A stretch of DNA of 64,000 nt from the NCBI RefSeq assembly GCF_003991155.1, contig NZ_CP031297.1; one strand, given 5' to 3'. Under the pieces are notes generated by a model. It was not told the DNA's origin, did not search any database, and worked only from the letters and a program-made list of their open reading frames with translations. The DNA is from Escherichia coli. Lineage in GTDB: Bacteria > Pseudomonadota > Gammaproteobacteria > Enterobacterales > Enterobacteriaceae. A program made the translations under genes and the position numbers. Below, piece by piece: positions 1 through 38,950 of this stretch; position 1 is the stretch's first letter, and each line of letters begins with the position of its first letter.

Positions 1-1101
1 ATGGACCACCAGCTAGAAAGTATCGACGGAACAATCATGAGCAAGAGAACCAAAGACAAAGACCTGGAGAAACTCGACGTAATCAAAGACTCACCGCAAA
101 TGAGCCTGTTTGAGATCATTGAATCTCCGGCCAAGAAAGACGACTACTCCAACACCATCGAGATCTACGATGCGCTGCCGAAGTACATTTGGGACCAAAA
201 GCGTGAGCATGAAGATTTATCCAACGCTGTAGTGACACGACAATGCACCATCAGAGGCCAGCATTTCACGGTGAAGGTGAAGCCAGCCATCATCGAGAAG
301 GATGACGGAAGAACCGTGCTGATCTACGCGGGACAGCGAGAGGAAATCCTTGAGGATGCTCTACGCAAGCTCGCAGTGAACGGGAAAGGCCATATCATCG
401 AGGGCAAGGCTGGAGTCATGTTCACTCTGTACGAACTCCAGAAAGAGCTCTCGAAGATGGGTCACGGTTACAACCTGAACGAAATCAAGGAAGCAATCCA
501 GGTTTGTCGTGGCGCAACACTCGAATGTATCAGTGATGACGGCGAAGCCTTCATCAGCTCCAGCTTCTTCCCGATGGTGGGACTTACCACCAGAGGTGAG
601 TTTCGCAAGAAAGGCGGGAACGCCAGGTGCTATGTGCAGTTCAACCCGCTGGTAAACGAATCGATCATGAATCTGTCGTTTCGTCAGTACAACTACAAAA
701 TCGGAATGCAAATCCGCTCCCCTCTTGCACGGTACATCTACAAGCGAATGAGCCACTACTGGACTCAAGCATCGCCAGATTCGCCGTACACGCCATCGCT
801 TATCAGCTTCCTGACACAGAGCCCTCGTGAATTGAGCCCACGGATGCCGGAGAACGTCAGAGCTATGAAGCTCGCTCTGGAGGCCCTCATCAAACAAGAG
901 GTCATAAGCGACTACGACGCGAACCAGATCAAGGATGGCCGCAGAGTCATCGACGTGCGGTACGTCATAAGGCCTCATGAGAACTTCGTGAAGCAGGTGA
1001 TGGCGTCCAACAAGCGTAAGCAGCAGACAGAGCTACGGGCCATCAAGCAAGGCATGATCGACCACGACATCATTGATGAACCCCAGCGTAAGGGGAGGTA
1101 G
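1..1101 (+). CDS. putative plasmid replication initiator (Rep); possibly 5'-truncated at window edge
   Basis: 366-aa ORF ending ~120 bp upstream of an iteron array with DnaA boxes and an AT-rich segment; assignment is contextual, no catalytic motif recognised. Confidence 0.4.
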   Translation: MDHQLESIDGTIMSKRTKDKDLEKLDVIKDSPQMSLFEIIESPAKKDDYSNTIEIYDALPKYIWDQKREHEDLSNAVVTRQCTIRGQHFTVKVKPAIIEKDDGRTVLIYAGQREEILEDALRKLAVNGKGHIIEGKAGVMFTLYELQKELSKMGHGYNLNEIKEAIQVCRGATLECISDDGEAFISSSFFPMVGLTTRGEFRKKGGNARCYVQFNPLVNESIMNLSFRQYNYKIGMQIRSPLARYIYKRMSHYWTQASPDSPYTPSLISFLTQSPRELSPRMPENVRAMKLALEALIKQEVISDYDANQIKDGRRVIDVRYVIRPHENFVKQVMASNKRKQQTELRAIKQGMIDHDIIDEPQRKGR

Positions 1102-19349: not shown

Positions 19350-20813
19350 ATGAGCGATATTACACAGCAAATGGACAAACTTGAGATTCCAATCAAGTTG
19401 TCCTTTCCAGTCATCAACGTTAGCACTTTTGAGCTGGGCCGTGCAGAGAGCGTTTTCTCTGACATTGCAAAGAAAGTCGGCAAGCACTTTATTGTGATGC
19501 CATTCAAGAAGCTGCCCGATCCAGGCACGATGAAGGCAATGGTGGACGAGTCCAAGAAGTCCTCCAAAAACGGTGTTGTCGTGTTCGACACTTTCTTTTT
19601 CGACCGACAACGTGCAAACCCGGAAACACTCCCAGCCCTCAAGTCATCACTGACCTATCTGGAGAATGAGGGGATCAACTACATCATCGCTGGCAAAGAC
19701 GTCTTCAATGAAGAGTTCGTTTATCACATCGATCTCCCGGCTATGAGCAATCAGGAAATCCTGAAACTGCTCCAGACCTGTGAAGATAACGTGAAAGATG
19801 GTGGAGTCTTCGAGAGCAACGAACGTGCTGTCATCGCAAACCACGCCCTGGGCTTGTCACACACCCAGATGAAGAACGTCTTCACCTATTCCGCTTACTT
19901 GAAATTCAAGGGTGAAGAATACCTGGGCGAGATCCGAAAAGAAAAAGCTCACATCTTGCGTGATGTCGGCCTCGATGTGCTTGAGGCCATTGATATTGGG
20001 AATGTCGGTGGGCTCGAAAACCTCAAGGAGTTTCTCCAGATACGTAAAGCCGGTTGGGACAAAGACCTTCCGGTAAAAGGTGTCCTTCTGGCCGGTGTAC
20101 CTGGTGGTGGTAAATCGCTGACGGCAAAAGCCGCTGCCGGTGTACTTGGCACTACCTTGGTTCGCCTGGATATGGGCCGTTTCTATAGTAAGTATCTCGG
20201 TGAAACCGAGCGCCAGTTCAATCGTGCATTGCAGACCATTGAGCAGATCGCACCCGTTGTTGTGTTGATTGACGAGATGGAGAAGTTTTTTGGTAATGCC
20301 GATGGCGAACACGAAGTATCCAAGCGCCTGCTGGGCTCTTTCCTCTACTGGCTTCAAGAGCGCAAGAAGAAGATCTTCATTGTGGCGACGGCCAACCGGG
20401 TTCAGTCGCTGCCTCCTGAATTGATGCGAGCTGGCCGCTGGGACCGAGCATTCTTCATTGATCTGCCAAGTGTGGCTGAGCGCCAGAAGATTTTCGAGAT
20501 CCACCTCGCCAAGCAGAAGGCCAACATCGCCGCGTTCGATATGCCTACGCTACTGCGTACCACCGAGGGATACACCGGGGCAGAGATTGAACAGGCCGTC
20601 ATTGACGCGATGTATCTGGCGAACGCTCAGGACAAAGAGCTCAACAATGAAGCGCTGGTGGATGCGGTCACTCGCATTACCCCGACCAGTGAAACTCGCC
20701 GAGAAGACATCAACCAGATTCGCAGTTTGCGGGATCAAGGCTTCTATCCGGCCAATAACTTCGATGTTCAAGAGCAGAATGGCTCTGGACGAAAACTCGC
20801 CATCGAGGACTAA
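19350..20813 (+). CDS. AAA+ ATPase, classic clade (Ycf46-like)
   Basis: 487 aa; Walker A GVPGGGKS, Walker B VVLIDEMEK, SRH ATANRVQSLPPELMRAGRWDRAFFIDLP; ~230-aa unassigned N-domain. Confidence 0.8.
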   Translation: MSDITQQMDKLEIPIKLSFPVINVSTFELGRAESVFSDIAKKVGKHFIVMPFKKLPDPGTMKAMVDESKKSSKNGVVVFDTFFFDRQRANPETLPALKSSLTYLENEGINYIIAGKDVFNEEFVYHIDLPAMSNQEILKLLQTCEDNVKDGGVFESNERAVIANHALGLSHTQMKNVFTYSAYLKFKGEEYLGEIRKEKAHILRDVGLDVLEAIDIGNVGGLENLKEFLQIRKAGWDKDLPVKGVLLAGVPGGGKSLTAKAAAGVLGTTLVRLDMGRFYSKYLGETERQFNRALQTIEQIAPVVVLIDEMEKFFGNADGEHEVSKRLLGSFLYWLQERKKKIFIVATANRVQSLPPELMRAGRWDRAFFIDLPSVAERQKIFEIHLAKQKANIAAFDMPTLLRTTEGYTGAEIEQAVIDAMYLANAQDKELNNEALVDAVTRITPTSETRREDINQIRSLRDQGFYPANNFDVQEQNGSGRKLAIED

Positions 20814-20874
20814 GCGATTAACTTTGTCATGCCGGAACACGGCATGACCCCCGAAACAACTCAGGAGTGATGAG

Positions 20875-21267
20875 ATGAGCCATATCGTAAAAGGCAAGGT
20901 GCAGGTCGCCTACAAAGACAAAGAGCTGCTGTTGAAGGCTCTGGAGGGAGTTGGCGTCGTTGTTGAAAACGAAAAGCTATACCGCGTGGGCGCTGGCTAC
21001 ACCTTCGAGAAATACCCGATTGTTCTGATCGACCAGAACAACAAGGAGCACCGGATTGGCTACAAGGAAAAAAACGGTGTTTGGGAGCAGTACCAGGAAA
21101 ACTACGGCTCTTATGGCCGCTGGACGCAGCAGGCAAGCAGCAAGGTGCAGGATCGCTACATTGCCTTCCACTACGAGCAGCAGTTGAAAGAGGAAGGTTT
21201 CAGCGTGACGGTGAAGCAGCATCACGATGGCACTTTGGAACTGGAAGCTGAGGAAGCTGTTTGGTAA
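20875..21267 (+). CDS. small conserved protein, DUF1257-like
   Basis: 130 aa; N-terminus MSHIVKGKV..LLLKALEGVG resembles DUF1257 as I recall it; own RBS. Confidence 0.5.
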   Translation: MSHIVKGKVQVAYKDKELLLKALEGVGVVVENEKLYRVGAGYTFEKYPIVLIDQNNKEHRIGYKEKNGVWEQYQENYGSYGRWTQQASSKVQDRYIAFHYEQQLKEEGFSVTVKQHHDGTLELEAEEAVW

Positions 21268-21315
21268 TAGCGCCAAGGCAATCAGATTAGTTGAACTTAA
21301 CGACGAGGTGACAAA

Positions 21316-21510
21316 GTGAAAAAGGTAAACATCAAGATCAAGGGCGGCAAGATTGCTGCCGATTTCACGGGGTTTCAGGGTAAGACCTGTGAAGCGCTGG
21401 AGCAGCGTATTCGCCCGGAAGAGCTCGAAGTCGAAGAAAAAGAGCTGAAACCCGAGTACCACTTCAATGCTGGTCAAACCCAGCACGAAACGGAACAGAA
21501 CGAATGGTGA
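21316..21510 (+). CDS. small conserved protein, DUF2997-like (GTG start)
   Basis: 64 aa; MKKVNIKIKGGKIAADFTGFQGKTC; RBS GAGGTG. Confidence 0.45.
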   Translation: MKKVNIKIKGGKIAADFTGFQGKTCEALEQRIRPEELEVEEKELKPEYHFNAGQTQHETEQNEW

Positions 21511-22688
21511 TGAGAAGGACAGGGCGCGTCCCCCTTCTTTTGCTGGTTGGTCTCATGGTCGCAGCTCCTGCGGCCTTTGCCAGTGACTTTGTGACTGGCG
21601 TAATGGTGGGGCAAATGCTCTCAGATGACTCAGGCAGCAAGAAGGTAGAGGACACTGGCCCGGAGAGCAAAACGGTCATTGATTACCATGACGGTCAGCC
21701 AGTTGTGACCAAAGTGGAGGCCTTCAAAAGCAATAAATGGCGCAAACTGGATGGCCCTCAGGGCGGCTATTTTGTTTGCCCAGGTGAATACCGTAGCTAT
21801 TCGGGAAGGCTGCGTTGTCGCGTCCATGATGACGGGCTCAATGGCTTTATGGGCGGTATGACTGATGCTCAGGAGCTACCGCTCCAAGAAGCTCTGACCA
21901 AGTTGGAAGGTAAACCCATCTCCCTGCAAACCATTGAAGTCCACGGGAACAACCTGGCAGTCAAATACCAGTTAGCACCACCAGCACAAACGCACGTCAA
22001 AACTCAGGACCTGGGGGTGGTTAAGCAAGATGGTGAAATGCAGAAGGTTGCCAGCCAACCACCAGCGCTATCCATAGAGACTGCACCAAAGAGTGAACCT
22101 CCCAAGCAGATTGGTGCTGCACAAGACACCGACCGCAATACCAGTGCGTTTCAAAGTCCGTTCGAGGAGGTAAGTGACTCCATGATCGGTCTAATGGATA
22201 GCTCTTTCGTCAAAGTCATAGCGGGGTTGATGCTGGTGTTTGGGGTTGCTAGTGGAATTATGAGGCAGAGCCCATCAGGAATTGTGATGGGGATAATGCC
22301 TGCAATTATGATCATGACCGCGCCAACGGTTATTCGTACCATGTTCGATACAGGCGCGGCCAGTACCAAGCCAGTGGAAGATAGCGGAAGCTCATTTCCT
22401 TTCTTCTTGGTGGCAATAGTGCCGGTGCTGATTTTCTTTGCCTATAGAGCTTTTATGAACAACCGGAGCGACTCCGAAATTGATGAGTTGTTAAGAGAAG
22501 CCCGACGTGCTGAAAGGGCTGAACGACCAAGCAATGAGCCTCCCTCAGTGGATGAACTCCGTGAGCGCCAGCAACAAAACCCAGAAAGAGAACCGGTGGT
22601 TGTCAGCTCATCAGCTCCGGCACCAAAGGTGCAAAAGGAAGAGCCAATCGAAGTACAGCCAGGCAAGCGCAAAATTATTTTGGATTAG
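21504..22688 (+). CDS. membrane protein with periplasmic N-domain and cytoplasmic tail ending PIEVQPGKRKIILD
   Basis: 394 aa; signal peptide, ~200-aa periplasmic region, hydrophobic segments, charged tail. Confidence 0.55.
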   Translation: MVMRRTGRVPLLLLVGLMVAAPAAFASDFVTGVMVGQMLSDDSGSKKVEDTGPESKTVIDYHDGQPVVTKVEAFKSNKWRKLDGPQGGYFVCPGEYRSYSGRLRCRVHDDGLNGFMGGMTDAQELPLQEALTKLEGKPISLQTIEVHGNNLAVKYQLAPPAQTHVKTQDLGVVKQDGEMQKVASQPPALSIETAPKSEPPKQIGAAQDTDRNTSAFQSPFEEVSDSMIGLMDSSFVKVIAGLMLVFGVASGIMRQSPSGIVMGIMPAIMIMTAPTVIRTMFDTGAASTKPVEDSGSSFPFFLVAIVPVLIFFAYRAFMNNRSDSEIDELLREARRAERAERPSNEPPSVDELRERQQQNPEREPVVVSSSAPAPKVQKEEPIEVQPGKRKIILD

Positions 22689-22699
22689 TGGGGTAGGTT

Positions 22700-23047
22700 A
22701 TGAGCAAAAAGCGCATCGTAATCAAAAATGGTGAGGTCTGCGGGTTTGCCGATGAGGTTTCCTTCAAAGGCCTTGAAGTGCAGGAATACAGTAAAACAAG
22801 GGTTTCGCGCATCGTGCCGACGAGCGGCATTCTAATGATTGCGTTCTATGTTATTCGCGGACTTTGTTCAGACGAGTCAAAGATTGCGGCATGGACTCGT
22901 GTTTGGCGTTGCCAGTGGAAGGTGCTGATCGACGGTAAAAGCTATGGACCATTCAGCAGTCGTGCGGATGCTATCTCGTTCGAGAAGGACGAGATCTACA
23001 AACAAGGCAAATTCTTTGCCGATGCCACTCACGAGGCGGCAGTATGA
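22700..23047 (+). CDS. hypothetical protein
   Basis: 115-aa ORF. Confidence 0.4.
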   Translation: MSKKRIVIKNGEVCGFADEVSFKGLEVQEYSKTRVSRIVPTSGILMIAFYVIRGLCSDESKIAAWTRVWRCQWKVLIDGKSYGPFSSRADAISFEKDEIYKQGKFFADATHEAAV

Positions 23048-23472
23048 TGACACGGGCGGCTATGGCCGCGCTGTTATCCGCGTTGGTAATAGGCCTTGTG
23101 TCTGATTTGTCCGCACAAGAGCTGGTGGTAAGCCAGGTGGCTATAGACAAGTCCACTGAGGTGGAGAAAGAAGCTACCTTCCACAACCGCAAGTGGGTGT
23201 TAAGGACGGGGCAGGTTAGTGGATTCTTCATCTGCCAAGGAGATAACAAAGACATTTACTACCGGCATGACAGGGTGGGCGCTCACTGCCAGAAGACATC
23301 GACTGGGTGGCGCAATGTACTGGGTCTCAGGGACGATGTTCCGGAAGTTGAGCTGAGCGTGTACCTGGGGACCGTTGAAGGTGTCCCCGTGAAAGTCCTT
23401 CATCAGGAAGTGGATGGTTACGATCTGAAAGTGCAGTACAAGGTTGCACGTAAAGGGTCAGCAAATGAGTGA
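23044..23472 (+). CDS. secreted hypothetical protein
   Basis: 142 aa; signal peptide MMTRAAMAALLSALVIGLVSDLSAQ. Confidence 0.45.
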   Translation: MMTRAAMAALLSALVIGLVSDLSAQELVVSQVAIDKSTEVEKEATFHNRKWVLRTGQVSGFFICQGDNKDIYYRHDRVGAHCQKTSTGWRNVLGLRDDVPEVELSVYLGTVEGVPVKVLHQEVDGYDLKVQYKVARKGSANE

Positions 23473-24028
23473 GAGTGTGCGTCGGTCAACGCCGATGGTA
23501 AAGATTAAAATCCTGCCGAGTTTCGTAGGGGTTCCCTTCCCGTCGGTGCTACTTATCGTTGCGGGGCTCCTTAATGGCCCTTTGTGGGGCTTTGCCGCAT
23601 TCGTCTTTCATATCGTCATCAAGCGGTACATCTACAGAGAATACCGGAGGTTGCCATATCCGATGCCAACCGGCTCAAGGCCTATGGATGAGTTGAGCGA
23701 GCTCCTTGTAAAGGGGATACCGGAGGAATTTTTCCGGCGGCTTGACGCAGCTTGCAGCTCTGATGCGTCAGTACAAATAACCTGCCCAAAGAAATACCGG
23801 CTGCTCAAAATGTCGTTGAATCGCTATGCCAACCGCGCTGGTTGTTACCCGCAGTTCCGGGAGGGGGATGAAATAGCGATTGAGGTAACAGAGCAGAGAC
23901 CAAGAAAAGCAGGAGCAGGGAAGGGCTTTCCAAGTATTCAAGTTCTGAAAGCGTCAGAGGGTGTTCTGAGTGAACCGGAGCAGCCTATCGAAATTCAGAA
24001 AGATAAGCGCAAGATTATCTTGGATTGA
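23465..24028 (+). CDS. membrane protein with C-terminal tail PIEIQKDKRKIILD
   Basis: ~187 aa from ATG 23465; N-terminal TM helices; tail paralogous to 21504..22688. Confidence 0.5.
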   Translation: MSESVRRSTPMVKIKILPSFVGVPFPSVLLIVAGLLNGPLWGFAAFVFHIVIKRYIYREYRRLPYPMPTGSRPMDELSELLVKGIPEEFFRRLDAACSSDASVQITCPKKYRLLKMSLNRYANRAGCYPQFREGDEIAIEVTEQRPRKAGAGKGFPSIQVLKASEGVLSEPEQPIEIQKDKRKIILD

Positions 24029-24039
24029 GGTGGGTTGGA

Positions 24040-24609
24040 ATGCGGTCATTTTTATACAGAATATTGCTTCTTTGCTTCGTCATTATCGTCCAGATAGGGC
24101 TAATCGCCATTGATGCGAGCCCGTTGGTTGTTGCTATGTTCCTCTCGCTAACAGCTTTAGTCGCTGGGGTCTGGATGGCGTACCTTCATTCCCGATTTTT
24201 GATGGCGGTGACTCCAGTAGTTATCTCTGTGCTAATGGCGACCCTCGCCATGAAAATGTTTGAGCCGAGACTCTTTGTTTCTGCCAGCGAAAAAGGCTGG
24301 TTCCCTTTGTCATTGTTCGTCTCGATACCGTTTTACTTCTACTTGAGTTACTTGCTTGAGATAGAGGAGAAGAGACGTACATTCCGGGCCAATGTGATTG
24401 GGTTTTTGCGTGGAGTTTCGGAAGAGATCCGTCGTTCAACCAGAGAGCATAGAGATCAAGGTGAGATAAGACACGGTGGAACAGAGCTGGGGAGTATTGA
24501 CGAACTACAAAGGGGCGAGGCCAAAGAGCCAGAAGTCATCAGCTCTACATCGGACCAGAAAGAACAAGGCACTCCCAAGCGAGACAAGAGAAAAATCATT
24601 CTGGACTGA
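24040..24609 (+). CDS. membrane protein with C-terminal tail KRDKRKIILD
   Basis: ~189 aa from ATG 24040 (RBS GAGGTG); several TM helices; same terminal motif. Confidence 0.5.
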   Translation: MRSFLYRILLLCFVIIVQIGLIAIDASPLVVAMFLSLTALVAGVWMAYLHSRFLMAVTPVVISVLMATLAMKMFEPRLFVSASEKGWFPLSLFVSIPFYFYLSYLLEIEEKRRTFRANVIGFLRGVSEEIRRSTREHRDQGEIRHGGTELGSIDELQRGEAKEPEVISSTSDQKEQGTPKRDKRKIILD

Positions 24610-31740: not shown

Positions 31741-31767
31741 AAACCCGCCAATCGGCGGGTTTTTTTA
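31741..31767. terminator. bidirectional rho-independent terminator
   Basis: CCCGCC-AATC-GGCGGG hairpin with A-run upstream and T7 downstream, between convergent genes. Confidence 0.65.
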
Positions 31768-32433
31768 TGCTGCCACGGTAGCGGCGGTTGCTGGAGGTTT
31801 TTCGGCGTAGTAGGCGATGTTCTTGGTTCGTCTGCTAAGGGTGTCTATGCCGACGATACTCAGCGTTTTGGGAGTGGTATTGCGGGACTCGAAATAATGG
31901 AATAGCTGGATCATGCAGCACTTCACCATCAACGGATCGATGTCTTCCAGGTAGATTGAGGCTTCTCTCAATGCTTCGGGACCGTGGTTCTCGATCAGGT
32001 TTTCCATCCAGTGAATGGCGTTGATGCCAGAACCACAGCAGGGCTCATAAAAGTCTGCCGAAGACTGTGAGCCAACAATGAGTGACATCAAGCGGCCAAT
32101 CTCTGGAGGAGTGGGGAAGTAATTGGTGCCCTTCTTGTGGAAGCCAGACATGCTTAGGACGTAACCCAAAACATCGCTGGTGGGGTCGCGCTTAATGGCG
32201 GCAGACAGGACGTGAGAGAGCTCGAAGGCGACCGGCTGAAGTTCTTCCGGGATCTCCTCCTTGGCTGGGTATAGGCCAGTCTGCAAGTATGCCCACTGGT
32301 CAATAAAGGCCTCAACAAACCGAGATGTGCCCATTCTGTATCGGGACTGCTCGATGAGAGATAAAGCCTTGGATGTAAGTTGCTGTGTTTCTGGTGACAT
32401 AAGCGCTCCAGTTTGTTCTGACGAAACATTCAA
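31765..32433 (-). CDS. N6-methyltransferase-like protein lacking catalytic motif IV (possibly truncated)
   Basis: 222 aa; motif X NYFPTPPEI and motif I FYEPCCGSG present, no (N/D/S)PP(Y/F/W) motif. Confidence 0.4.
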   Translation of the reverse strand: MNVSSEQTGALMSPETQQLTSKALSLIEQSRYRMGTSRFVEAFIDQWAYLQTGLYPAKEEIPEELQPVAFELSHVLSAAIKRDPTSDVLGYVLSMSGFHKKGTNYFPTPPEIGRLMSLIVGSQSSADFYEPCCGSGINAIHWMENLIENHGPEALREASIYLEDIDPLMVKCCMIQLFHYFESRNTTPKTLSIVGIDTLSRRTKNIAYYAEKPPATAATVAA

Positions 32434-32704
32434 GAGGTAGAAACGAAGAACCCCGCCGAAGCGAGGTTCTTTGCTTTCCTGCCTGATCGCCTTAATGCCG
32501 AAGCAAAGACGTCTTGATAAAGTCGGGGCAACCGGACATTTCCCGGTCGATGAAGTCCTGACGTTTCGCCAGCGGCCATTTCATGAACGCCGCGAGCGGG
32601 ATGCGCTTATTCGTGTTAGTATTGCCTTGCAGCATAACAAAGCTCCTTAATTGCTTGATTGTGTTGTAAGGGCTGCAACGAAGGTCGAAGAGCGATGCGG
32701 CCCT

Positions 32705-32740
32705 TATTTATGATTATTACAGCATCATAAAATAATATCA
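32705..32740. promoter_or_regulatory. 28-bp palindrome family copy (TTACAGCATCATAAAATAAT core)
   Basis: Divergent intergenic region 32434..32952. Confidence 0.45.
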
Positions 32741-32770
32741 AGAGACAATAAAACGATACCAAGAAACAAA

Positions 32771-32788
32771 ACTTTCACATGTGAAAGT
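32771..32788. promoter_or_regulatory. parS-like 18-bp perfect palindrome ACTTTCACATGTGAAAGT
   Basis: Exact; divergent intergenic region. Confidence 0.6.
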
Positions 32789-32847
32789 CTCCCCGCTGTC
32801 CACCTCGCACACTCCAAACGCCCAAACGCCCAAATAACTTGTCTATC

Positions 32848-32862
32848 TGCCCAAAATGGGCG
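32848..32862. promoter_or_regulatory. TGCCCAAAATGGGCG motif
   Basis: Identical to copy at 18227. Confidence 0.4.
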
Positions 32863-32921
32863 CGTAAGCGTCCGATAGAAAGTAATTGTTAGTGAGATAT
32901 TGACTACACGGAATATGGCTA

Positions 32922-32952
32922 TATCATAGAATCATAAAATGATGCTGTAAAA
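32922..32952. promoter_or_regulatory. 28-bp palindrome family copy (ATCATAGAATCATAAAATGATGCTGTAAAAG)
   Basis: Immediately upstream of ORF 32953. Confidence 0.5.
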
Positions 32953-33339
32953 GTGATATGTATGCCAAAGCAAGCAAATCATCTCCGTTTGAAGAAACCT
33001 TGCGCCAACTGTCCATTCCGGAAGGAGGGCGCTATCGAGCTGGCCCCTGGGCGATTAGAAGGCATCATCAACGACATCGTTGAAAACGACATGACGACGT
33101 TTCATTGCCACAAGACCGTGCACTCAAAGTCAGGTGGTGAATGGGATGAAGAGGGTAACTATGCACCTTCGGGACAAGAGTCGATGTGTGCCGGTGCTGC
33201 GGCTTACTTGATGAAAATAGGCAGGCCGACAGTGGCTATGCGAATTGCCTTTGCGTTTGGTGATGCAAAGGTGTCCGACTGGGACGAAGCTCAAGAGCTG
33301 GTTGTCGAGCCTTTGGTACAAGGGGACCGAAATGAGTAA
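32953..33339 (+). CDS. Cys-rich hypothetical protein
   Basis: 128 aa; CANCPF ... CH. Confidence 0.4.
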   Translation: MICMPKQANHLRLKKPCANCPFRKEGAIELAPGRLEGIINDIVENDMTTFHCHKTVHSKSGGEWDEEGNYAPSGQESMCAGAAAYLMKIGRPTVAMRIAFAFGDAKVSDWDEAQELVVEPLVQGDRNE

Positions 33340-33613
33340 GCGATATGCGGTAGTGCCGCATCCGAAACTGAAACGAGAGTACAAAGGTCGGCTGGTCAGA
33401 ACTACTCGGGTACTAAAAAACGGCTGGGGGTTGATCCCTCTAGGGGCTGTGGCAACGGTCACGCATCAGTCTCCCAAGGGATCAGAACTGACCTTTGAAC
33501 CATGCGACTGCTGCGGCCTGAAAGCCATTATCAGTCATGTAAGCATGGACTCCATTGAATTTATCGAACCGATTACTGAGGAAGAAGATGGACGAGAACA
33601 AGCTCAACATTGA
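33332..33613 (+). CDS. hypothetical protein
   Basis: ~93 aa from ATG 33332; contains CDCCG. Confidence 0.35.
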   Translation: MSKRYAVVPHPKLKREYKGRLVRTTRVLKNGWGLIPLGAVATVTHQSPKGSELTFEPCDCCGLKAIISHVSMDSIEFIEPITEEEDGREQAQH

Positions 33614-34262
33614 AACGGTCGATGGGCACAACGAGCTGGTAGTCAGCTTTTTGTCCAGAATGGTAAGCCTGAGTGACGAGGAAAAGCAGACAGTATTGTC
33701 CTGCCTTCCGGACACCGGCAAACAAACAATCACCCAGCTCTATGAGGCGCTGCGTTCTCAAGGGCACCAGGATCTTGCAGAGAAAGTCGAACCATACCTC
33801 CAGCAGGGGGTGTTTGGGCCGATCTTCGATAACGCCAAGTCCAAGGTGTTCGTTCGGGACGAAGCGCCTTTTTTCCTCATGGATGAAAATCCTTTGAACT
33901 GGGATGACGCTAAAGCATTCAATCGCCTACGTATGAGTACGACCTGTGTTCTTGGCCGTGGCGGCTGGACTATCGGTGAGCGCTTTGATGACCGCTTTGA
34001 TACCGAGGTGGGCGGAACACAGCTTATCGTCACTCAGTCACTCAACGAAAAAGGTGAGATTGAAGGAGGACTTCCTACCTCGATGTCGCTGAATGACTTT
34101 GCTGAGTTCCCTAAACAGCCAAGGCCTCCTCAAATAGTCGATTACCAGGAAGACAAGCGATACACGCTTGAGGAAGCGGAAGCTATCCCTGAGCTCGCAC
34201 CAGTGGTTCAGCGTCTGAAAGAGCGCATCGAAGAGTATGAGGAGAGAAGAGCCCATGATTGA
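33588..34262 (+). CDS. hypothetical protein
   Basis: ~224 aa from ATG 33588. Confidence 0.4.
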   Translation: MDENKLNIETVDGHNELVVSFLSRMVSLSDEEKQTVLSCLPDTGKQTITQLYEALRSQGHQDLAEKVEPYLQQGVFGPIFDNAKSKVFVRDEAPFFLMDENPLNWDDAKAFNRLRMSTTCVLGRGGWTIGERFDDRFDTEVGGTQLIVTQSLNEKGEIEGGLPTSMSLNDFAEFPKQPRPPQIVDYQEDKRYTLEEAEAIPELAPVVQRLKERIEEYEERRAHD

Positions 34263-34761
34263 CCTGACATGCCGCCTTTGTGCTGGTTCCGGTGTTTATG
34301 ACTTTTCCCCTTCCAAAGAAACCTGCGGTATGTGCCAAGGGCATGGGAAATTTGTTGACGCCAAAGCAATGCTGGTGGCTGCCATCGAGCTGGCAAAGAA
34401 GCAACGCGAGCCTGTCATTGAAGTGGTAATGGGGTTGGTGCTCCAGGGTGTGGATGTTAGAGGGAAGGAGCCTGGAGAGCGGTTCAAGGCTGCTCAGGCC
34501 TTTAACGCCCCAGGGCACAACCTATTACGATACGGGTGGGATGCTTGGGAGCTCTATGCCCTCCATGAGGGTGTAAGTCCAGAACTTGCATCGCTTGGCC
34601 GAAGTGTGATGCGCGAGTGGCATAGCCATTCATGGGGCCGGTTCAGTGGAGAGGTAGGCTTTAACGCCGCCGAGATCATGATCAAACAGGCCAAAGACAA
34701 CCCAGAAAAAGCAGAAGAGCGCTGGGCGTTCCTGCTTAGTGAAGAATGGATGGTGGAGTAA
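34255..34761 (+). CDS. hypothetical protein with two CxxCxGxG (DnaJ-type) zinc-finger motifs
   Basis: CRLCAGSG and CGMCQGHG near N-terminus. Confidence 0.4.
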   Translation: MIDLTCRLCAGSGVYDFSPSKETCGMCQGHGKFVDAKAMLVAAIELAKKQREPVIEVVMGLVLQGVDVRGKEPGERFKAAQAFNAPGHNLLRYGWDAWELYALHEGVSPELASLGRSVMREWHSHSWGRFSGEVGFNAAEIMIKQAKDNPEKAEERWAFLLSEEWMVE

Positions 34762-35078
34762 TTGTCGTGACAGAACAAACCAATAAGAAATTGATGCTGG
34801 ATGAGTCTCCAGATATGCCCCTGCAATTCAAGTGGAGAAAGTTTGGTGGTGCGATTTTTACTGCCACGCAAACAATGGAGCACGTCAAGGAAGGACGTAA
34901 GCTCGGGCCGACTCCAGCAGGGATGCTACCTCAAGAAGTGTGGCTGAACCGCCTGATCGCTATGGAAGAAACCCTGCCACGAGGGAAGTTTTTTGACAGA
35001 TTCCGCCGCCGCGACAAAAACGAGCAGTATGACTTGGCCGCCGATCATCTCCGTCTTGTCGGACAGAAAAAGCGATAG
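34746..35078 (+). CDS. hypothetical protein
   Basis: 110-aa ORF. Confidence 0.4.
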   Translation: MDGGVIVVTEQTNKKLMLDESPDMPLQFKWRKFGGAIFTATQTMEHVKEGRKLGPTPAGMLPQEVWLNRLIAMEETLPRGKFFDRFRRRDKNEQYDLAADHLRLVGQKKR

Positions 35079-35086
35079 GGGGATAG

Positions 35087-35587
35087 ATGAAAGCCCAGGC
35101 ATACCCACCATCAGTCATTCGTAAAGGCGCTGTGTTGTACGCAGCCCTTTATTACATCTCTGATGATGATAAAGCAAAGGTCGAGGTTACAGAGTGGATA
35201 GTTCGCTCTATTCAGAAACGACGCAACTCAACCAGCGATCAACGCTATGTCAATCTTGCCCAAAAGTTAGATGGGATTACGTGGGGGAAAAGGTCACGGA
35301 AGAATGGGGACTTTGGTTGGTTGCCATCTATACCGAGCTGGTGCTTGAAGCAGTTCCGGGAAGGTGGCGAATTGCCTTTTGGCGTTTATACGACGCGACT
35401 GGCCGCTCTCAAGTTTGCGAAAGTCAGCTTGCAGGAAGAGGTCCAATATTGCGAGGCCGAGCTGAAAAAGGCTCAGACAGAAGAGGATACTCAGGAACTC
35501 CAAGAGGAGCTGGCGGAGAACCAGAGACTTCTGAAAGCTGCTGGAGCAATGGTGAAGCGCGAGCAAAACAAGAAGAAAAGAGGTTGA
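35087..35587 (+). CDS. hypothetical protein with coiled-coil C-terminus
   Basis: 166-aa ORF. Confidence 0.4.
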   Translation: MKAQAYPPSVIRKGAVLYAALYYISDDDKAKVEVTEWIVRSIQKRRNSTSDQRYVNLAQKLDGITWGKRSRKNGDFGWLPSIPSWCLKQFREGGELPFGVYTTRLAALKFAKVSLQEEVQYCEAELKKAQTEEDTQELQEELAENQRLLKAAGAMVKREQNKKKRG

Positions 35588-35590
35588 CCA

Positions 35591-37018
35591 ATGTTACCGA
35601 TCGTCTCCCCCTCCGTAGTAACCAAACAACTTGCGTTCAATCGAGTAGGCGATAAACGCAAGGTTAGGGTTTCGTCCAACTTTTTGGATGTTATGGGGTT
35701 CAAGCCAGGTATGGGCATCGCCGTTGAGCCAGGGGAGGGGATGGGCGGTTTTTCGGTGATCCCAGCGACCGATGAACTACAGACACACCAGGTTTATCAG
35801 CGCCGGTATCAACCAAAGAGTCGCTCCAACAACCCGCTGGAAACCGTTATTGAGTTTTCTGGACAAGGGCTCATAGATAAGTGCTTCCCTCGCTATACAG
35901 AGCGTTTCCACGTCGAAATGCGAAAAGGTCGAGTAGTCTTCACTCCCGTCGCAAACAGAGCCTTTGCCATTGCTGATCGGTTCAGAAAAACCAGCCCTTT
36001 CCGTGCCTTTGTGGCATTGACTGGCGGGGTAGACATTCATGTTATGGAATCGCTTGGCTGGAAGGCTGAGATTGTTTTGGAACATCGTCCAGTTGAAGCC
36101 AGAGACAGAGCATCCGGGCGGAACCTGAGTGAAGTACATGCGCTCAATACGCTGGTGAACAGCTCCCCGCGTATCCTGCTGAATGAAGACATTCATCACC
36201 TGGAGCTGGATCGCCTTGGAGCCTTGCTGGCGGAGTGCCCACCAATTGGTTTGGCCCATTACTCGTTGGGGTGTGATGACCACTCAAACGCCAAAAGTCC
36301 AAGGGACAAAGAGCGTTCTCTTGAAGATCTCTCCACCATGCTCGACATGGTTTACCCGGCACTAAAACAGATCGAGGTCGTGAACCCTGCCGTCGTGCTG
36401 GTGGAAAACGTCCCGAACTTCAAAGCATCCGGAGCCGGGGCGATGATGGGAACGACACTGCGGCGGATGGGGTACTTCCTCACTGAGATGGTCTTGAACG
36501 GTCTGGATTTCGGCGCGTACCAGGGGCGAGAACGCTATTACATGGTGGCGTCGGTCTTCCCTGGGTTCGTTCCACCGAAACCTGAGCAGAGAGCTGGTGG
36601 ACGATTGTGGCCGGTGATCGAGAAGCACCTCGGGGATTGTGCAGACGTCACAGCGTTGAAGTCAATTCAGGCCAGAGAGTCAACTTCTCGCAGGATGCCT
36701 GCGTTCTTGACGAGAGAAAGCACCAGTTGCCCGACCATCCTCAAGTCTCAGGATCGTGGGGTAAAGGATGCAGTGTACATCCAAGACGGTGGCCGCATTT
36801 ACAAGCCATCGGTCGATCTGGTTCAGGAGTTGATGTCGATACCTGATAGCTTTGATATTTCGTGGATGGCAAAAGAACAAGCGACAGAAACACTTGGGCA
36901 GAGTGTGGATTACAGATTGCATTCAGCGGTCATGGCCGCAGTTCGGGATCACCTGAATGTGAATTGCGGTCGCCATACCGTGGTGCAGCACGGTATCAGA
37001 AGTAAGGAAGGTAAATAA
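35591..37018 (+). CDS. DNA cytosine-5 methyltransferase-like protein with N-terminal AbrB/SpoVT-like domain
   Basis: 475 aa; C5-MTase-like ENV motif (VLVENVPNF) and QxRxR motif (QGRERYYMVAS); candidate motif I EFSGQG; atypical Cys context SLGCDD; N-terminus resembles swapped-hairpin DNA-binding domain. Confidence 0.5.
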   Translation: MLPIVSPSVVTKQLAFNRVGDKRKVRVSSNFLDVMGFKPGMGIAVEPGEGMGGFSVIPATDELQTHQVYQRRYQPKSRSNNPLETVIEFSGQGLIDKCFPRYTERFHVEMRKGRVVFTPVANRAFAIADRFRKTSPFRAFVALTGGVDIHVMESLGWKAEIVLEHRPVEARDRASGRNLSEVHALNTLVNSSPRILLNEDIHHLELDRLGALLAECPPIGLAHYSLGCDDHSNAKSPRDKERSLEDLSTMLDMVYPALKQIEVVNPAVVLVENVPNFKASGAGAMMGTTLRRMGYFLTEMVLNGLDFGAYQGRERYYMVASVFPGFVPPKPEQRAGGRLWPVIEKHLGDCADVTALKSIQARESTSRRMPAFLTRESTSCPTILKSQDRGVKDAVYIQDGGRIYKPSVDLVQELMSIPDSFDISWMAKEQATETLGQSVDYRLHSAVMAAVRDHLNVNCGRHTVVQHGIRSKEGK

Positions 37019-37674
37019 TGGCAGTCATTTACTACGGCGAGGGAACCCATGACGCCGGTTTCGTCGGGTTCCGTGTCGCACGAACAGTTGGGGTGGCGGA
37101 TGATTACCGGCAGGAATACTTCTCCTTGAGAGAGTATTCCTACGCAACAGCTCACCGGCTGGCCTACAGCTTGGACCGAAAGTGGGAAGCTGAGGCAGAA
37201 GAGGTGAAGCGTCAGAATAAGACTTGTAAGCGGCGACGCAACTCCGGGCCAAATATCATTGCTGAGGGGCTGAGGGCTTATATCAGTATCGAGAACCGGA
37301 GCCGGATGGGGGTGAAGAGAACCTACTTCGCACCTTGTTTTCTCGTCACAAAGCCAGGCTACGGCAATGGGGATATTGTTTTCAGGATTTCCACTCATGG
37401 CTACGCAGAAGCCTACGAAAAGGCGGTGGAAAAATATTGTGAGATCCATGATTTGACGGATGAGCAGTATGTTGAGTTGCTTGACCGTATGCCGAGTACA
37501 GAGGTGTTCACTGGATACCTGCTGAATGCTCTTTTAATACGCGGTCATCGCGCCACAAAAGCTGAAATACTGAGTAAGCTGGGGGCTGCGAAGAATGAAG
37601 ATGACATCACCAATAGCAAAGGGAAAAGCGGCCACAACAGAGTGCGTTGCCCAGAGTATCGGTGGGCGCAATAA
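37018..37674 (+). CDS. hypothetical protein
   Basis: 218-aa ORF, start overlaps previous stop. Confidence 0.4.
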   Translation: MAVIYYGEGTHDAGFVGFRVARTVGVADDYRQEYFSLREYSYATAHRLAYSLDRKWEAEAEEVKRQNKTCKRRRNSGPNIIAEGLRAYISIENRSRMGVKRTYFAPCFLVTKPGYGNGDIVFRISTHGYAEAYEKAVEKYCEIHDLTDEQYVELLDRMPSTEVFTGYLLNALLIRGHRATKAEILSKLGAAKNEDDITNSKGKSGHNRVRCPEYRWAQ

Positions 37675-37729
37675 CAGCGCCAGATGTTCAAACCATGTTT
37701 TATAGCAACACCTCTTTGGGGGCGGAATT

Positions 37730-38347
37730 ATGTTTTTTGATAACAAAGTAGAATCTCACTCGCTCGTAATGGGAGCCAGCGGGAAGGGCAAATCGGTCTT
37801 GTCCGAACAAGTGCGGAAAAACGCGAGGCTGCGCGGTGATCTGCTGGTGGATACTGAGATGTACCGTGAAGGTCGAGGGTTGAAACCATACGAGCATGAG
37901 TACGCTCGTCGCTTAGTTCTGGGGCTAAGTGGACCGTTGCCGCGTGAACTGCGTGGGAAGCCGGTGACGGTTATCTCTGATGTGTCCAGACCAAAAAAGG
38001 TAAAGCGTCAGCCAAAGCAATTTGTTAAGACCGTAAATGGCGTCACCCTTGAACGCCAATTGGTGGCAGATGCAAGAGACCAGTTGGAAATGCAAACAGG
38101 CGTCTGGCTCAAACAACCTCAGCTCATCGAGCTGATGGAAGAGTCGGGCATAGACGAAACTCTAGCCGATTTTGGTGAGGCTGAAACACAGATCCGAGAA
38201 ATGCTGGCGGATGCGTTGGCGATGAAACTGGTAGGGCGCTCATGGCCCAAGTGTGGAGCCCTCTATAACGCGGCAGAAAAGTCCGACGTTAACTTTTCCT
38301 CCGAGCTTGATGCTGCGGCAAAAGAAGCTGGATACATGGTTCGCTGA
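37730..38347 (+). CDS. hypothetical protein
   Basis: 205-aa ORF. Confidence 0.4.
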   Translation: MFFDNKVESHSLVMGASGKGKSVLSEQVRKNARLRGDLLVDTEMYREGRGLKPYEHEYARRLVLGLSGPLPRELRGKPVTVISDVSRPKKVKRQPKQFVKTVNGVTLERQLVADARDQLEMQTGVWLKQPQLIELMEESGIDETLADFGEAETQIREMLADALAMKLVGRSWPKCGALYNAAEKSDVNFSSELDAAAKEAGYMVR

Positions 38348-38554
38348 ATGGGATTTGGTGTGGACAAGATAGATCGGCAAAGTTGGCTCGTTAAATTCAG
38401 GCGAGCGAAGTGTCAGGACACTTTAGACACGATGCGGGATGCGGCCATTCGCAACTATGAAGGGAATATTCGTGTTATCGCGGATATTGTATTGGCCCAT
38501 GAGGCGAGAGAGACAGAAATTGAAAAAGGGATGTTTTGTCTAATAGTTAGATAG
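38348..38554 (+). CDS. small hypothetical protein
   Basis: 68-aa ORF contiguous with previous stop. Confidence 0.3.
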   Translation: MGFGVDKIDRQSWLVKFRRAKCQDTLDTMRDAAIRNYEGNIRVIADIVLAHEARETEIEKGMFCLIVR

Positions 38555-38558
38555 TCTG

Positions 38559-38858
38559 ATGAGCTATCAGGTGGTGATTATGAAAAAGAGAATACTTCAT
38601 CTGCCCGTAAAAAAGATTTACTTCGATCAGATCAAATCTGGAGAAAAACCAGATGAATATCGCCTCGTCACAGACTACTGGATAAAAAGACTAGAGGGGC
38701 GCGAGTATGATGAAGTCCATGTTAAGTGTGGCTACCCAAAGGCTGGAGATATGTCCAGGATAGAGATTCGTCCTTGGCGTGGCTTCTCAAGGAACGTCAT
38801 AACGCACCCGCACTTTGGAGATTATCCGGTTGAAGTATTCGCCATCCATGTGAATTGA
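38559..38858 (+). CDS. ASCH-domain-like protein
   Basis: 99 aa; GxKxxExR-type motif (SGEKPDEYR); AT-rich relative to surroundings. Confidence 0.45.
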   Translation: MSYQVVIMKKRILHLPVKKIYFDQIKSGEKPDEYRLVTDYWIKRLEGREYDEVHVKCGYPKAGDMSRIEIRPWRGFSRNVITHPHFGDYPVEVFAIHVN

Positions 38859-38921: not shown

Positions 38922-38950
38922 TAAGGGGCCGACGGCCCCTTAATTGTTTT
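38922..38950. terminator. bidirectional terminator-like hairpin
   Basis: AGGGGCC-GAC-GGCCCCT stem-loop between convergent genes. Confidence 0.5.

Follow-up and report, generated by a model that had tools for sequence, protein, structure and literature searches.

Six consecutive short open reading frames (ORFs) precede a methyltransferase-like gene on a 64,000-nucleotide stretch of Escherichia coli DNA (contig NZ_CP031297.1; the whole stretch is called the window here), and we were interested in what their products do for the element that carries them. The DNA belongs to an IncC (IncA/C2) plasmid (typed replicon IncC, MOBH, MPF_F), of which the window comprises the first 64 kb. A first-pass annotation had described the ORFs as a run of small Cys-rich or zinc-ribbon proteins, probably in one operon with the methyltransferase-like gene and possibly an anti-restriction or leading-region-like module. 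The six + strand ORFs are indeed present where it had placed them, and the start it had chosen at 32953 is a GTG three codons 5' of the annotated ATG. The RefSeq gene calls are as follows:

32962-33339, + strand: ORF1, vcrx036, 125 amino acids (alternative GTG start at 32953)
33332-33613, + strand: ORF2, vcrx037, 93 amino acids
33588-34262, + strand: ORF3, vcrx038, 224 amino acids
34255-34761, + strand: ORF4, vcrx039, 168 amino acids
34767-35078, + strand: ORF5, vcrx040, 103 amino acids, GTG start
35087-35587, + strand: ORF6, vcrx041, 166 amino acids
35591-37018, + strand: dcm2, vcrx042, 475 amino acids, 'DNA cytosine methyltransferase' in RefSeq

Our preferred answer, to which we give a probability of about 0.5, is that the six ORFs form an array of accessory or establishment genes, mosaic in make-up and independent of one another, that is co-expressed with the conjugation regulon and with dcm2. 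They are the promoter-proximal genes of an approximately 6-kb IncC/IncA backbone operon that runs via dcm2 to a terminator at about 38.94 kb, and they would be independently mobile small accessory genes, as arrayed in large conjugative plasmids and phages.

The lengths and overlaps of the six ORFs equal the pVCR94 values exactly at an offset of +12461, and they are therefore vcrx036 to vcrx041. The supplement of Carraro et al. (2014) places vcrx036 at 20501-20878, vcrx037 at 20871-21152, vcrx038 at 21127-21801, vcrx039 at 21794-22300, vcrx040 at 22306-22617, vcrx041 at 22626-23126 and vcrx042 at 23130-24557, and published pVCR94dX positions were mapped to the window by the same offset, taken from the vcrx036 coordinates. 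The gene map agrees with pNDM-1_Dok01 and with the pVCR94 numbering, in which parAB are vcrx031/032 and dcm2 (1428 bp) is vcrx042, and the window coordinates are those of IncC records that start at repA (e.g. NZ_CP048797.1). The block is the same locus as vcrx036-vcrx044 of pVCR94 (R55_55 onward in R55), with identical lengths, order, AcaCD box, transcription start site and parS. As the operon has already been described in the literature, where vcrx036-041 are listed as of 'unknown function', the finding as first stated is a rediscovery without a function and holds nothing new. A literature search found no functional study of vcrx036-041; only vcrx036 is named there, as a promoter.

Hundreds of typed IncC plasmids share region 32800-37100 at 100% identity. 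Used as a query against plasmid records, this region was matched in 1,067, with at least 99% identity in 993 and at least 80% of the query covered in 1,013, and as the IncA/C-type repA (window 1-1101) was found in 1,051 records, the block is as common as the IncA/C replicon itself. Its hosts are chiefly Klebsiella, Salmonella, Escherichia, Citrobacter, Providencia and Vibrio. The IncA orthologues of vcrx036-041 and dcm2 are syntenic and lie in the frame from parAB-053 to topB, so that the block belongs to the IncC/IncA backbone. Comparison with IncA plasmid pA18-1 gave ratios of nonsynonymous to synonymous substitution (dN/dS) of 0.17 for ORF1, 0.20 for ORF3, 0.10 for ORF4, 0.11 for ORF5, 0.11 for ORF6 and 0.09 for dcm2; judged from these ratios, ORF1, ORF3, ORF4, ORF5 and ORF6 are under purifying selection and are more than chance ORFs. 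From the 1,067 records, the purifying selection and the published transcripts, the ORFs are both conserved and expressed, and the doubt that the first-pass annotation had left on this point can be dropped.

That the genes are independent of each other is indicated by the company their relatives keep. Relatives of ORF1, ORF3, the C-terminal domain of ORF4 and ORF6 are scattered over other plasmids and phages, apart from one another and in altered order. The neighbours of ORF1 relatives differ among Achromobacter, Paraburkholderia, IncP-7, IncFIB/HI1B and viral contigs, and phage homologues of ORF1 and ORF6 lie within long arrays of small hypothetical genes without the other five ORFs. A distant IncA/C-like contig (L013) keeps the frame parB-053-(vcrx034/035)...topB and has the gene order ORF6-like, ORF9-like, ORF3-like, ORF1-like, without ORF2, ORF4, ORF5 and dcm2. 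As relatives hold such shuffled and partial gene sets, one machine made of the six proteins and dcm2 was rejected as the main interpretation. The sole internal link among the genes is that of ORF2 and ORF3, with an overlap of 26 nt in the window and a fusion in one lineage. Two natural IncC plasmids (NC_022652.1 and NZ_CP106914.1) carry insertion sequences (ISApu2 and ISKpn18) inside the 32.8-37.1 kb block, and at least one of its genes is thus dispensable for plasmid survival.

The junctions from ORF1 to dcm2 measure -8, -26, -8, +5, +8 and +3 nt, which confirms the tight packing with overlapping stops and starts (the first three overlap), and purine-rich Shine-Dalgarno-like sequences lie ahead of ORF2-ORF6 and dcm2. 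Four distal genes (37018-38858) and a hairpin follow dcm2:

37018-37674, + strand: ORF8
37730-38347, + strand: ORF9
38348-38554, + strand: ORF10
38559-38858, + strand: ORF11
38922-38942, bidirectional: strong intrinsic-terminator-like hairpin with a 9-bp stem (6 GC pairs), separating the + strand operon from the convergent topB operon

The distal junctions, from dcm2 to ORF11, are -1, +55, 0 and +4 nt. A terminator scan of 32.9-38.9 kb gave no convincing internal terminator before the hairpin, and an Rfam search of 31-40 kb returned no RNA family. Carraro et al. (2014) had predicted an operon vcrx036-vcrx044 with a single transcription start site. The close coupling, the lack of a convincing internal terminator and this prediction uphold the proposal that the six ORFs and the methyltransferase-like gene are one operon, and ORF8-ORF11 probably belong to the same transcription unit as vcrx036-dcm2.

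The intergenic region 5' of ORF1 and the divergent genes beyond it hold the following features:

31765-32400, - strand: vcrx034, 211 amino acids, a short N6_Mtase-like gene downstream of vcrx035
32492-32635, - strand: vcrx035, 47 amino acids, divergent partner gene of vcrx036
32769-32790: IncC parS site, with the 14-bp core TTTCACATGTGAAA at 32773-32786 (exact core match) and the flanks AAAC and GTCT
32843-32871, + strand: AcaCD-binding motif of the vcrx036 promoter, CTATCTGCCCAAAATGGGCGCGTAAGCGT, mapped from pVCR94dX 20382-20410
32900-32927, + strand: sigma-70-like hexamers TTGACT-16-TATCAT, 10/12 consensus; such matches are no commoner than in shuffled sequence
32906-32908, + strand: transcription start site of the vcrx036 operon, mapped from published 5' rapid amplification of cDNA ends (20445-20447 in Table S3 of Carraro et al., 2014)

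The AcaCD motif (P 5.3e-10) lies beneath a peak of chromatin immunoprecipitation with exonuclease digestion, 5' of vcrx036 (Carraro et al., 2014, Table S3), and the same study reported vcrx036 RNA of 0 without acaCD and of 320 with induced acaDC. As the operon promoter is bound by AcaCD, the master activator of conjugation, the vcrx036-041 proteins would be made alongside the transfer machinery. Durand et al. described the divergent vcrx035-036 promoters, which share one intergenic region, as AcaCD-bound, and found single-copy lacZ fusions to vcrx035, vcrx036 and vcrx087 to be constitutive. The sigma-70-like hexamers may be a second, constitutive promoter that could explain this reporter activity. 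The parS site lies about 50 bp upstream of the AcaCD box, and both the site and the AcaCD core CTGCCCAAAATGGG are conserved in IncA. ParB binds IncC parS sites, one of which stands beside the AcaCD box of R55_55/vcrx036, and it has been proposed to act as a global regulator at such sites (Szabo et al., 2024). Nine exact TTTCACATGTGAAA cores occur in the window (4541, 5620, 9204, 9663, 14978, 18314, 29358, 32773 and 50192), several of them just 5' of + strand gene blocks, including the promoters of parA (29358) and vcrx036 (32773), a placement that fits a KorB-like global regulatory role for ParB. In addition, a 22-nt repeat is present at both divergent promoters, at 32715-32736 (TATTACAGCATCATAAAATAAT) and 32922-32943 (TATCATAGAATCATAAAATGAT); it may be a shared operator of vcrx035 and vcrx036, and its first copy is kept even in the distant contig L013.

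All six ORFs were searched against Pfam, NCBIfam, PHROGs and PADLOC. None exceeded a curated threshold of Pfam, NCBIfam or PADLOC, and the sole strong matches were to two PHROGs of unknown function. The comparison with anti-defence genes that had been proposed for the cluster was likewise negative, as no anti-restriction, anti-CRISPR or defence family was matched by any of the six: Pfam and NCBIfam searches at E up to 0.1 found no ArdA, ArdB/KlcA, ArdC, Ocr, PsiB or Acr, and among the PADLOC defence-system families only JetC was touched, by a coiled-coil artefact of ORF6. Sequence searches of the PDB (single sequences for ORF3-ORF6, family profiles for ORF1 and ORF4) found nothing. The Cys counts of ORF1 to ORF6 are 4, 3, 2, 4, 0 and 2, compared to a background of 1.2% in the long ORFs of the window. 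All motifs quoted in the first-pass annotation are present (CANCPF...HCH in ORF1, CDCCG in ORF2, CRLCAGSG and CGMCQGHG in ORF4), but as clusters occur in only three of the six proteins, ORF3, ORF5 and ORF6 are not Cys-rich and the description as a Cys-rich run holds for ORF1, ORF2 and ORF4 only. Nothing seen among the six supports the label 'zinc-ribbon'. As far as the alignments tell, only ORF1 and ORF4 keep their Cys motifs in distant homologues.

ORF1 is a small acidic protein with C14, C17, C49, H50 and C76 invariant in 115 sequences, and it most likely holds a structural metal ion via the four Cys (and the His). It matches phrog_5443 at E 3e-23. Against DUF6283 (PF19800) it scores 17 bits over its N-terminal 45 residues only, below the gathering cutoff of 27, and 45 of the 115 family members weakly touch DUF6283 through the N-terminal CxxCP...HCH, the best at E 6.7e-5 and all below the cutoff. 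ORF1 is thus like DUF6283 and PHROG 5443 in its N-terminal Cys motif and its PHROG match, without membership in the Pfam family; both families are uncharacterised, and no paper mentioning DUF6283 was found in the literature search. The confident structure model of ORF1 gave no fold match in the PDB. Relatives at 50-81% identity (286) were found in Pseudomonas, Achromobacter, Paraburkholderia and other bacteria. The family is present in 1,715 plasmid records (1,553 predicted conjugative), including IncP-7 pCAR1, about 400 Klebsiella pneumoniae IncFIB/IncHI1B plasmids and Pseudomonas megaplasmids, as well as in phages of Pseudomonas, Gordonia, Bacillus and Erythrobacter and in 21 IMG/VR loci. 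One viral contig has an ORF1 relative amid anti-TRAP/DnaJ-type zinc-finger mini-proteins, echoing the pairing of ORF1 and ORF4 in IncC.

Relatives of ORF1 adjoin methyltransferases of different families in three independent settings, namely IncC, IncP-7 and viral contigs of about 90 kb. IncP-7 plasmids have the order ORF11-like, ORF1-like and, after about 60 nt, an N-6 DNA methylase, and nine related IMG/VR contigs (about 90 kb) have an S-adenosylmethionine-dependent methyltransferase (PF08241, 25.4 bits) whose stop codon overlaps the ORF1-like start. Methyltransferases also lie 3-4 kb from the ORF1 homologue in pNDM-MAR-type plasmids. Many ORF1 contexts are without a methyltransferase in the flanks examined (L002 and L005, by precomputed Pfam); for contexts L024, L026, L028, L033, L043 and L044 this refers to selected neighbours only.

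The N-terminus of ORF4 has two CxxCxGxG motifs 14 residues apart, a spacing that suffices for a single Zn(Cys)4 centre of the anti-TRAP kind, and both are kept in a 45%-identical chromosomal homologue. The earlier designation as DnaJ-type was therefore right about the two motifs, which are real, but ORF4 stays below the Pfam and NCBIfam thresholds and has the repeats for one zinc centre instead of the two of DnaJ. Its score against the DnaJ central cysteine-rich domain (PF00684) is 19.6 bits (E 0.0011, cutoff 32.7), with two repeats in place of four. Anti-TRAP RtpA (NF058604) is matched at 15.9 bits (E 0.011, cutoff 65) over residues 8-38 only. Anti-TRAP (PF15777/NF058604) is a small inhibitor protein of about 53 residues with one CxxCxGxG-type zinc centre, whereas ORF4 has 168 residues and continues beyond the knuckle into a Trp-rich helical domain that is unrelated to both DnaJ and anti-TRAP. 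From the motif pair, ORF4 most likely holds a structural metal ion in a single DnaJ/anti-TRAP-type site, and the pair would present the helical domain.

This C-terminal domain (residues 92-163, YPWDxW...LGRxVMRE..H.W) has no Pfam or PHROG family. A word-index search found ORF4 relatives at the IncA/C level only; an exhaustive HMMER search found 134 cluster representatives, nearly all matching residues 92-163 only, with W95, D96, W98, G115, R116, R120, E121, H125 and W127 conserved. The domain is joined to many unrelated N-termini, including one fusion to CsrA. Its model is a confident helical bundle (predicted local distance difference test, 94-98) that matched only generic or designed bundles, and none in BFVD. 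A 1,310-residue repeat protein (P0158) with 18 matches to ORF4 was judged a low-complexity artefact and rejected as a relative.

ORF2, which carries CDCCG, is the least conserved of the six. A 168-nt in-frame deletion in IncA removes most of it, including the CDCCG segment, and leaves a mini-ORF (L017 4288-4359). The pKHM-1 lineage (L019 1491-1790) has a 1-nt deletion by which ORF2 is joined in frame to ORF3 in a 309-residue product (P0288), seen in 40 database sequences. ORF2 is dispensable. ORF3 has an isoelectric point (pI) of 4.6 and a net charge of -18, and a few plasmid-like contigs share its conserved core (about residues 103-221). RefSeq names some of its alleles 'thymidylate kinase' (e.g. 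WP_000344151) and others 'hypothetical protein'. We rejected the kinase assignment: ORF3 has no Pfam or NCBIfam match at E up to 0.1, no Walker A/P-loop motif (GxxGxGK[ST]) and no PDB relative, and for these reasons the name appears to be an annotation error that has been passed on. In L015 and L016 (8001-8762 and 10431-11549), contigs of up to 127 kb, a gene homologous to the ORF3 core is found two genes away from one that is AcrVA2-like (PF26125). ORF5 is basic, without Cys, and its sole family match is to DUF6504 below threshold. ORF6 is also basic (the pI of the two proteins is 9.5-9.9); its N-terminal domain matches phrog_18599 at E 1.5e-30, its C-terminus resembles a charged coiled coil, and its relatives occur in phages of Colwellia, Sinorhizobium, Rhizobium, Vibrio and Agrobacterium.

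What such an array might do can be approached from the regulation and from comparison with known systems. The vcrx036-041 proteins would also be made transiently in new transconjugants, before plasmid repressors accumulate. Each protein, small and acting alone, would bind a macromolecule of the host or the plasmid and thereby aid establishment of the plasmid in the new cell, and establishment could include countering host defences beside a protective methylation by dcm2. A parallel is the hde operon (vcrx087-093), which provides proven anti-restriction and Bet/Exo repair of CRISPR cuts in IncC. Both operons belong to the backbone, have an AcaCD-bound promoter that is constitutive in reporters and contain genes without a prior family. 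They share no sequence relationship, and hde differs by a demonstrated recipient phenotype and by depletion in transposon sequencing (TnSeq), in which vcrx036-041 were not singled out. A triple dcm1-3 deletion, dcm2 included, abolished transfer of pVC211 (Wang et al., 2019), an ORF3-like gene has an AcrVA2-like gene nearby in L015 and L016, and orphan methyltransferases cluster with anti-defence genes on plasmids generally. From the regulatory parallel to hde, the effect of the dcm1-3 deletion and this clustering, an anti-defence role for vcrx036-041 is plausible by analogy. Several observations weigh against the proposed establishment array. None of the ORFs matches a known anti-defence family in the four collections searched, the fold searches with ORF1 and the ORF4 domain yielded no functional lead, and association with small-gene arrays is weak evidence. 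RNA-seq and reporter data conflict on whether the vcrx036 promoter is AcaCD-dependent or constitutive. Moreover, in the TnSeq experiment of Roy et al. (2020), with a V. cholerae recipient that has CRISPR-Cas and type I restriction-modification, only vcrx089-093 were depleted and no dcm gene was essential.

A bolder and rather doubtful version of the array would make ORF1 a very widespread, mobile-element-restricted metal-binding family that could act as a new kind of anti-restriction or epigenetic accessory factor, and ORF4 a new anti-TRAP-like zinc-knuckle inhibitor with an undescribed Trp-rich domain; if true, IncC plasmids would have in the AcaCD-driven vcrx036-046 operon a second one devoted to host-defence evasion. 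The small proteins, above all ORF1, could instead be accessory factors of DNA methylation, i.e. specificity, targeting or regulatory partners of dcm2 and the nearby methyltransferase-like genes, as the operon is shared with dcm2, the divergent N6_Mtase-like gene is only 0.5 kb away and methyltransferases accompany ORF1 homologues in IncP-7, the 90-kb viral contigs and, at 3-4 kb, pNDM-MAR-type plasmids. We regard this as unlikely: the associated enzymes belong to different families and are absent from many of the ORF1 flanks examined, the distant IncA/C-like relative has ORF1-, ORF3- and ORF6-like genes without dcm2, ORF1 and ORF6 have phage relatives and dcm2 has none, and methyltransferases are frequent in plasmid accessory regions regardless. 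An unlikely explanation, too, is plasmid housekeeping (partition, copy number, transcriptional control or donor-side DNA processing) rather than interaction with the host. The position of the cluster directly 3' of parA-parB-053, the ParB-binding parS at its promoter and the basic ORF5 and ORF6, which could therefore bind nucleic acid, speak for it, and expression in the AcaCD regulon fits a donor-side transfer role. Such a role is difficult to reconcile with the natural insertions inside the block, with IncC plasmids that persist without dcm2 (ARI-B-associated deletions) and with homologues in lytic-type phage genomes, which are unlike a plasmid-specific role; the transfer and maintenance genes named in the accessible part of the TnSeq report by Roy et al. 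are tra, repA and parAB and not vcrx036-041.

Very unlikely is an anti-defence island of the leading region as strictly understood by Samuel et al. (2024), which would be the first part to reach the recipient, with expression from the single strand as it arrives. The resemblance is real, as leading-region arrays and anti-defence islands (ArdA, KlcA, PsiB, Acr, orphan methyltransferases) likewise combine co-oriented small genes of unknown function with an orphan methyltransferase, the IncC locus also sits on a broad-host-range conjugative plasmid, and its members recur in small-gene arrays of phages. The genes from repA to 38.9 kb have been counted as one orientation (vcrx034 and vcrx035 are listed on the - strand). 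In a 151,684-bp IncC record that shares the coordinates of the window, mobI lies at 150869-151408, and because oriT is immediately upstream of mobI, it is about 1 kb before window position 1 and about 34 kb from the cluster, with repA, two par loci and about 40 genes, housekeeping genes among them, in between. The Pfam search found no ssb, psiB, ardA or klcA relatives, and the locus has no known anti-defence gene, unlike the islands. In the leading region of the F plasmid, transcription of genes that are expressed from the incoming strand runs toward oriT. Were the + strand side of the IncC plasmid the first to enter, the + strand genes of the cluster would point away from oriT. Attempts to map the nic site of IncA/C failed (Hegyi et al., 2017), and our literature search found no later determination of either nic site or transfer polarity. 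It is hardly credible that the ORFs are non-functional remnants or annotation artefacts, a description that would suit ORF2 at most, given its loss in IncA and its frameshift fusion in the pKHM-1 lineage. Although no ORF passes a curated family threshold, dN/dS is 0.10-0.20 for the other five, transcripts were detected (Carraro et al., 2014), ORF1, ORF3, ORF4 and ORF6 have distant homologues (45-80% identity), and the models of ORF1 and the ORF4 C-terminal domain are confident. Participation in methylation, housekeeping and strict leading-region function are each less likely than a mosaic array of accessory or establishment genes.

The operon matters since IncC plasmids are among the main plasmids that bear blaNDM and blaCMY in Enterobacterales and Vibrio, and the hde operon accounts for only a part of their very broad host range. 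Of the IncC backbone, about 40 kb, this operon included, is labelled 'hypothetical', and learning what vcrx036-041 do could uncover more functions in establishment or anti-defence, as well as possible points at which to limit spread. To the described operon the present analysis adds the leads that the genes are independent modules, of which ORF1 belongs to a large family of mobile elements whose predicted fold is unmatched and whose neighbours are recurrently methyltransferases, ORF4 contributes an undescribed C-terminal domain family, ORF2 can be lost and ORF3 bears an unfounded label.

Concerning the methyltransferase-like gene itself, dcm2 scores 38.5 bits against PF00145 (cutoff 22), over residues 228-320 and profile positions 71-160 only, and 38.3 bits against TIGR00675 (cutoff 100.65). 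Alignment to HhaI showed ENV and QGRER (QxRxR) to be present; by eye, motif IV reads 'GC' instead of the catalytic 'PC' and motif I reads 'ALTGG'. The protein aligns to the C5-methyltransferase family over motifs IV-VIII only, and about 200 N-terminal residues match no family. On these alignments dcm2 is a divergent orphan C5-cytosine methyltransferase-like gene; no phage relatives were found at E below 1e-6. The synonymous divergence (dS) between IncC and IncA (32962-37018 compared to L017, pA18-1) is uneven, with 0.22-0.41 for ORF1 and ORF3-ORF6, 0.09 for dcm2 and 0.07 for vcrx035, which suggests IncA/IncC backbone recombination inside the operon.

Upstream, the + strand carries parA, parB (KorB-like) and the helix-turn-helix gene '053'; beyond the four distal genes come the convergent topB operon and, after it, traI. 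The divergent vcrx034 scores 22.9 bits against PF02384 (cutoff 20.4) over the first, N-terminal third of the N6_Mtase profile only and is predicted to be a methylase-like protein that is either truncated or minimal; L013 retains a homologue of it with 55% identity. ORF9 begins with a GxxGxGKS-like motif (GASGKGKS) and has a weak PADLOC match to mad8 (E 1.2e-4) and a very weak one to the FtsK/SpoIIIE P-loop. With a 67%-identical homologue in L013 it is the best conserved gene of the operon. A 52%-identical homologue of ORF11 lies directly 5' of the ORF1 homologue in IncP-7 pCAR1 (L021 8713-8988). ORF11 was considered as an ASCH domain protein, the RefSeq label of a homologue on a P. shirazica plasmid (L022 4714-5004), and this was dropped as Pfam and NCBIfam did not confirm it. 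Finally, three records in phage collections (AB571791.1, CAKLQH020000066.1 and CAKLQF020000041.1) are IncC plasmid sequence and gave false 'phage' matches at 99-100% identity; one is from Salmonella (127.7 kb) and two are contigs named 'Acinetobacter phage MD-2021a'.

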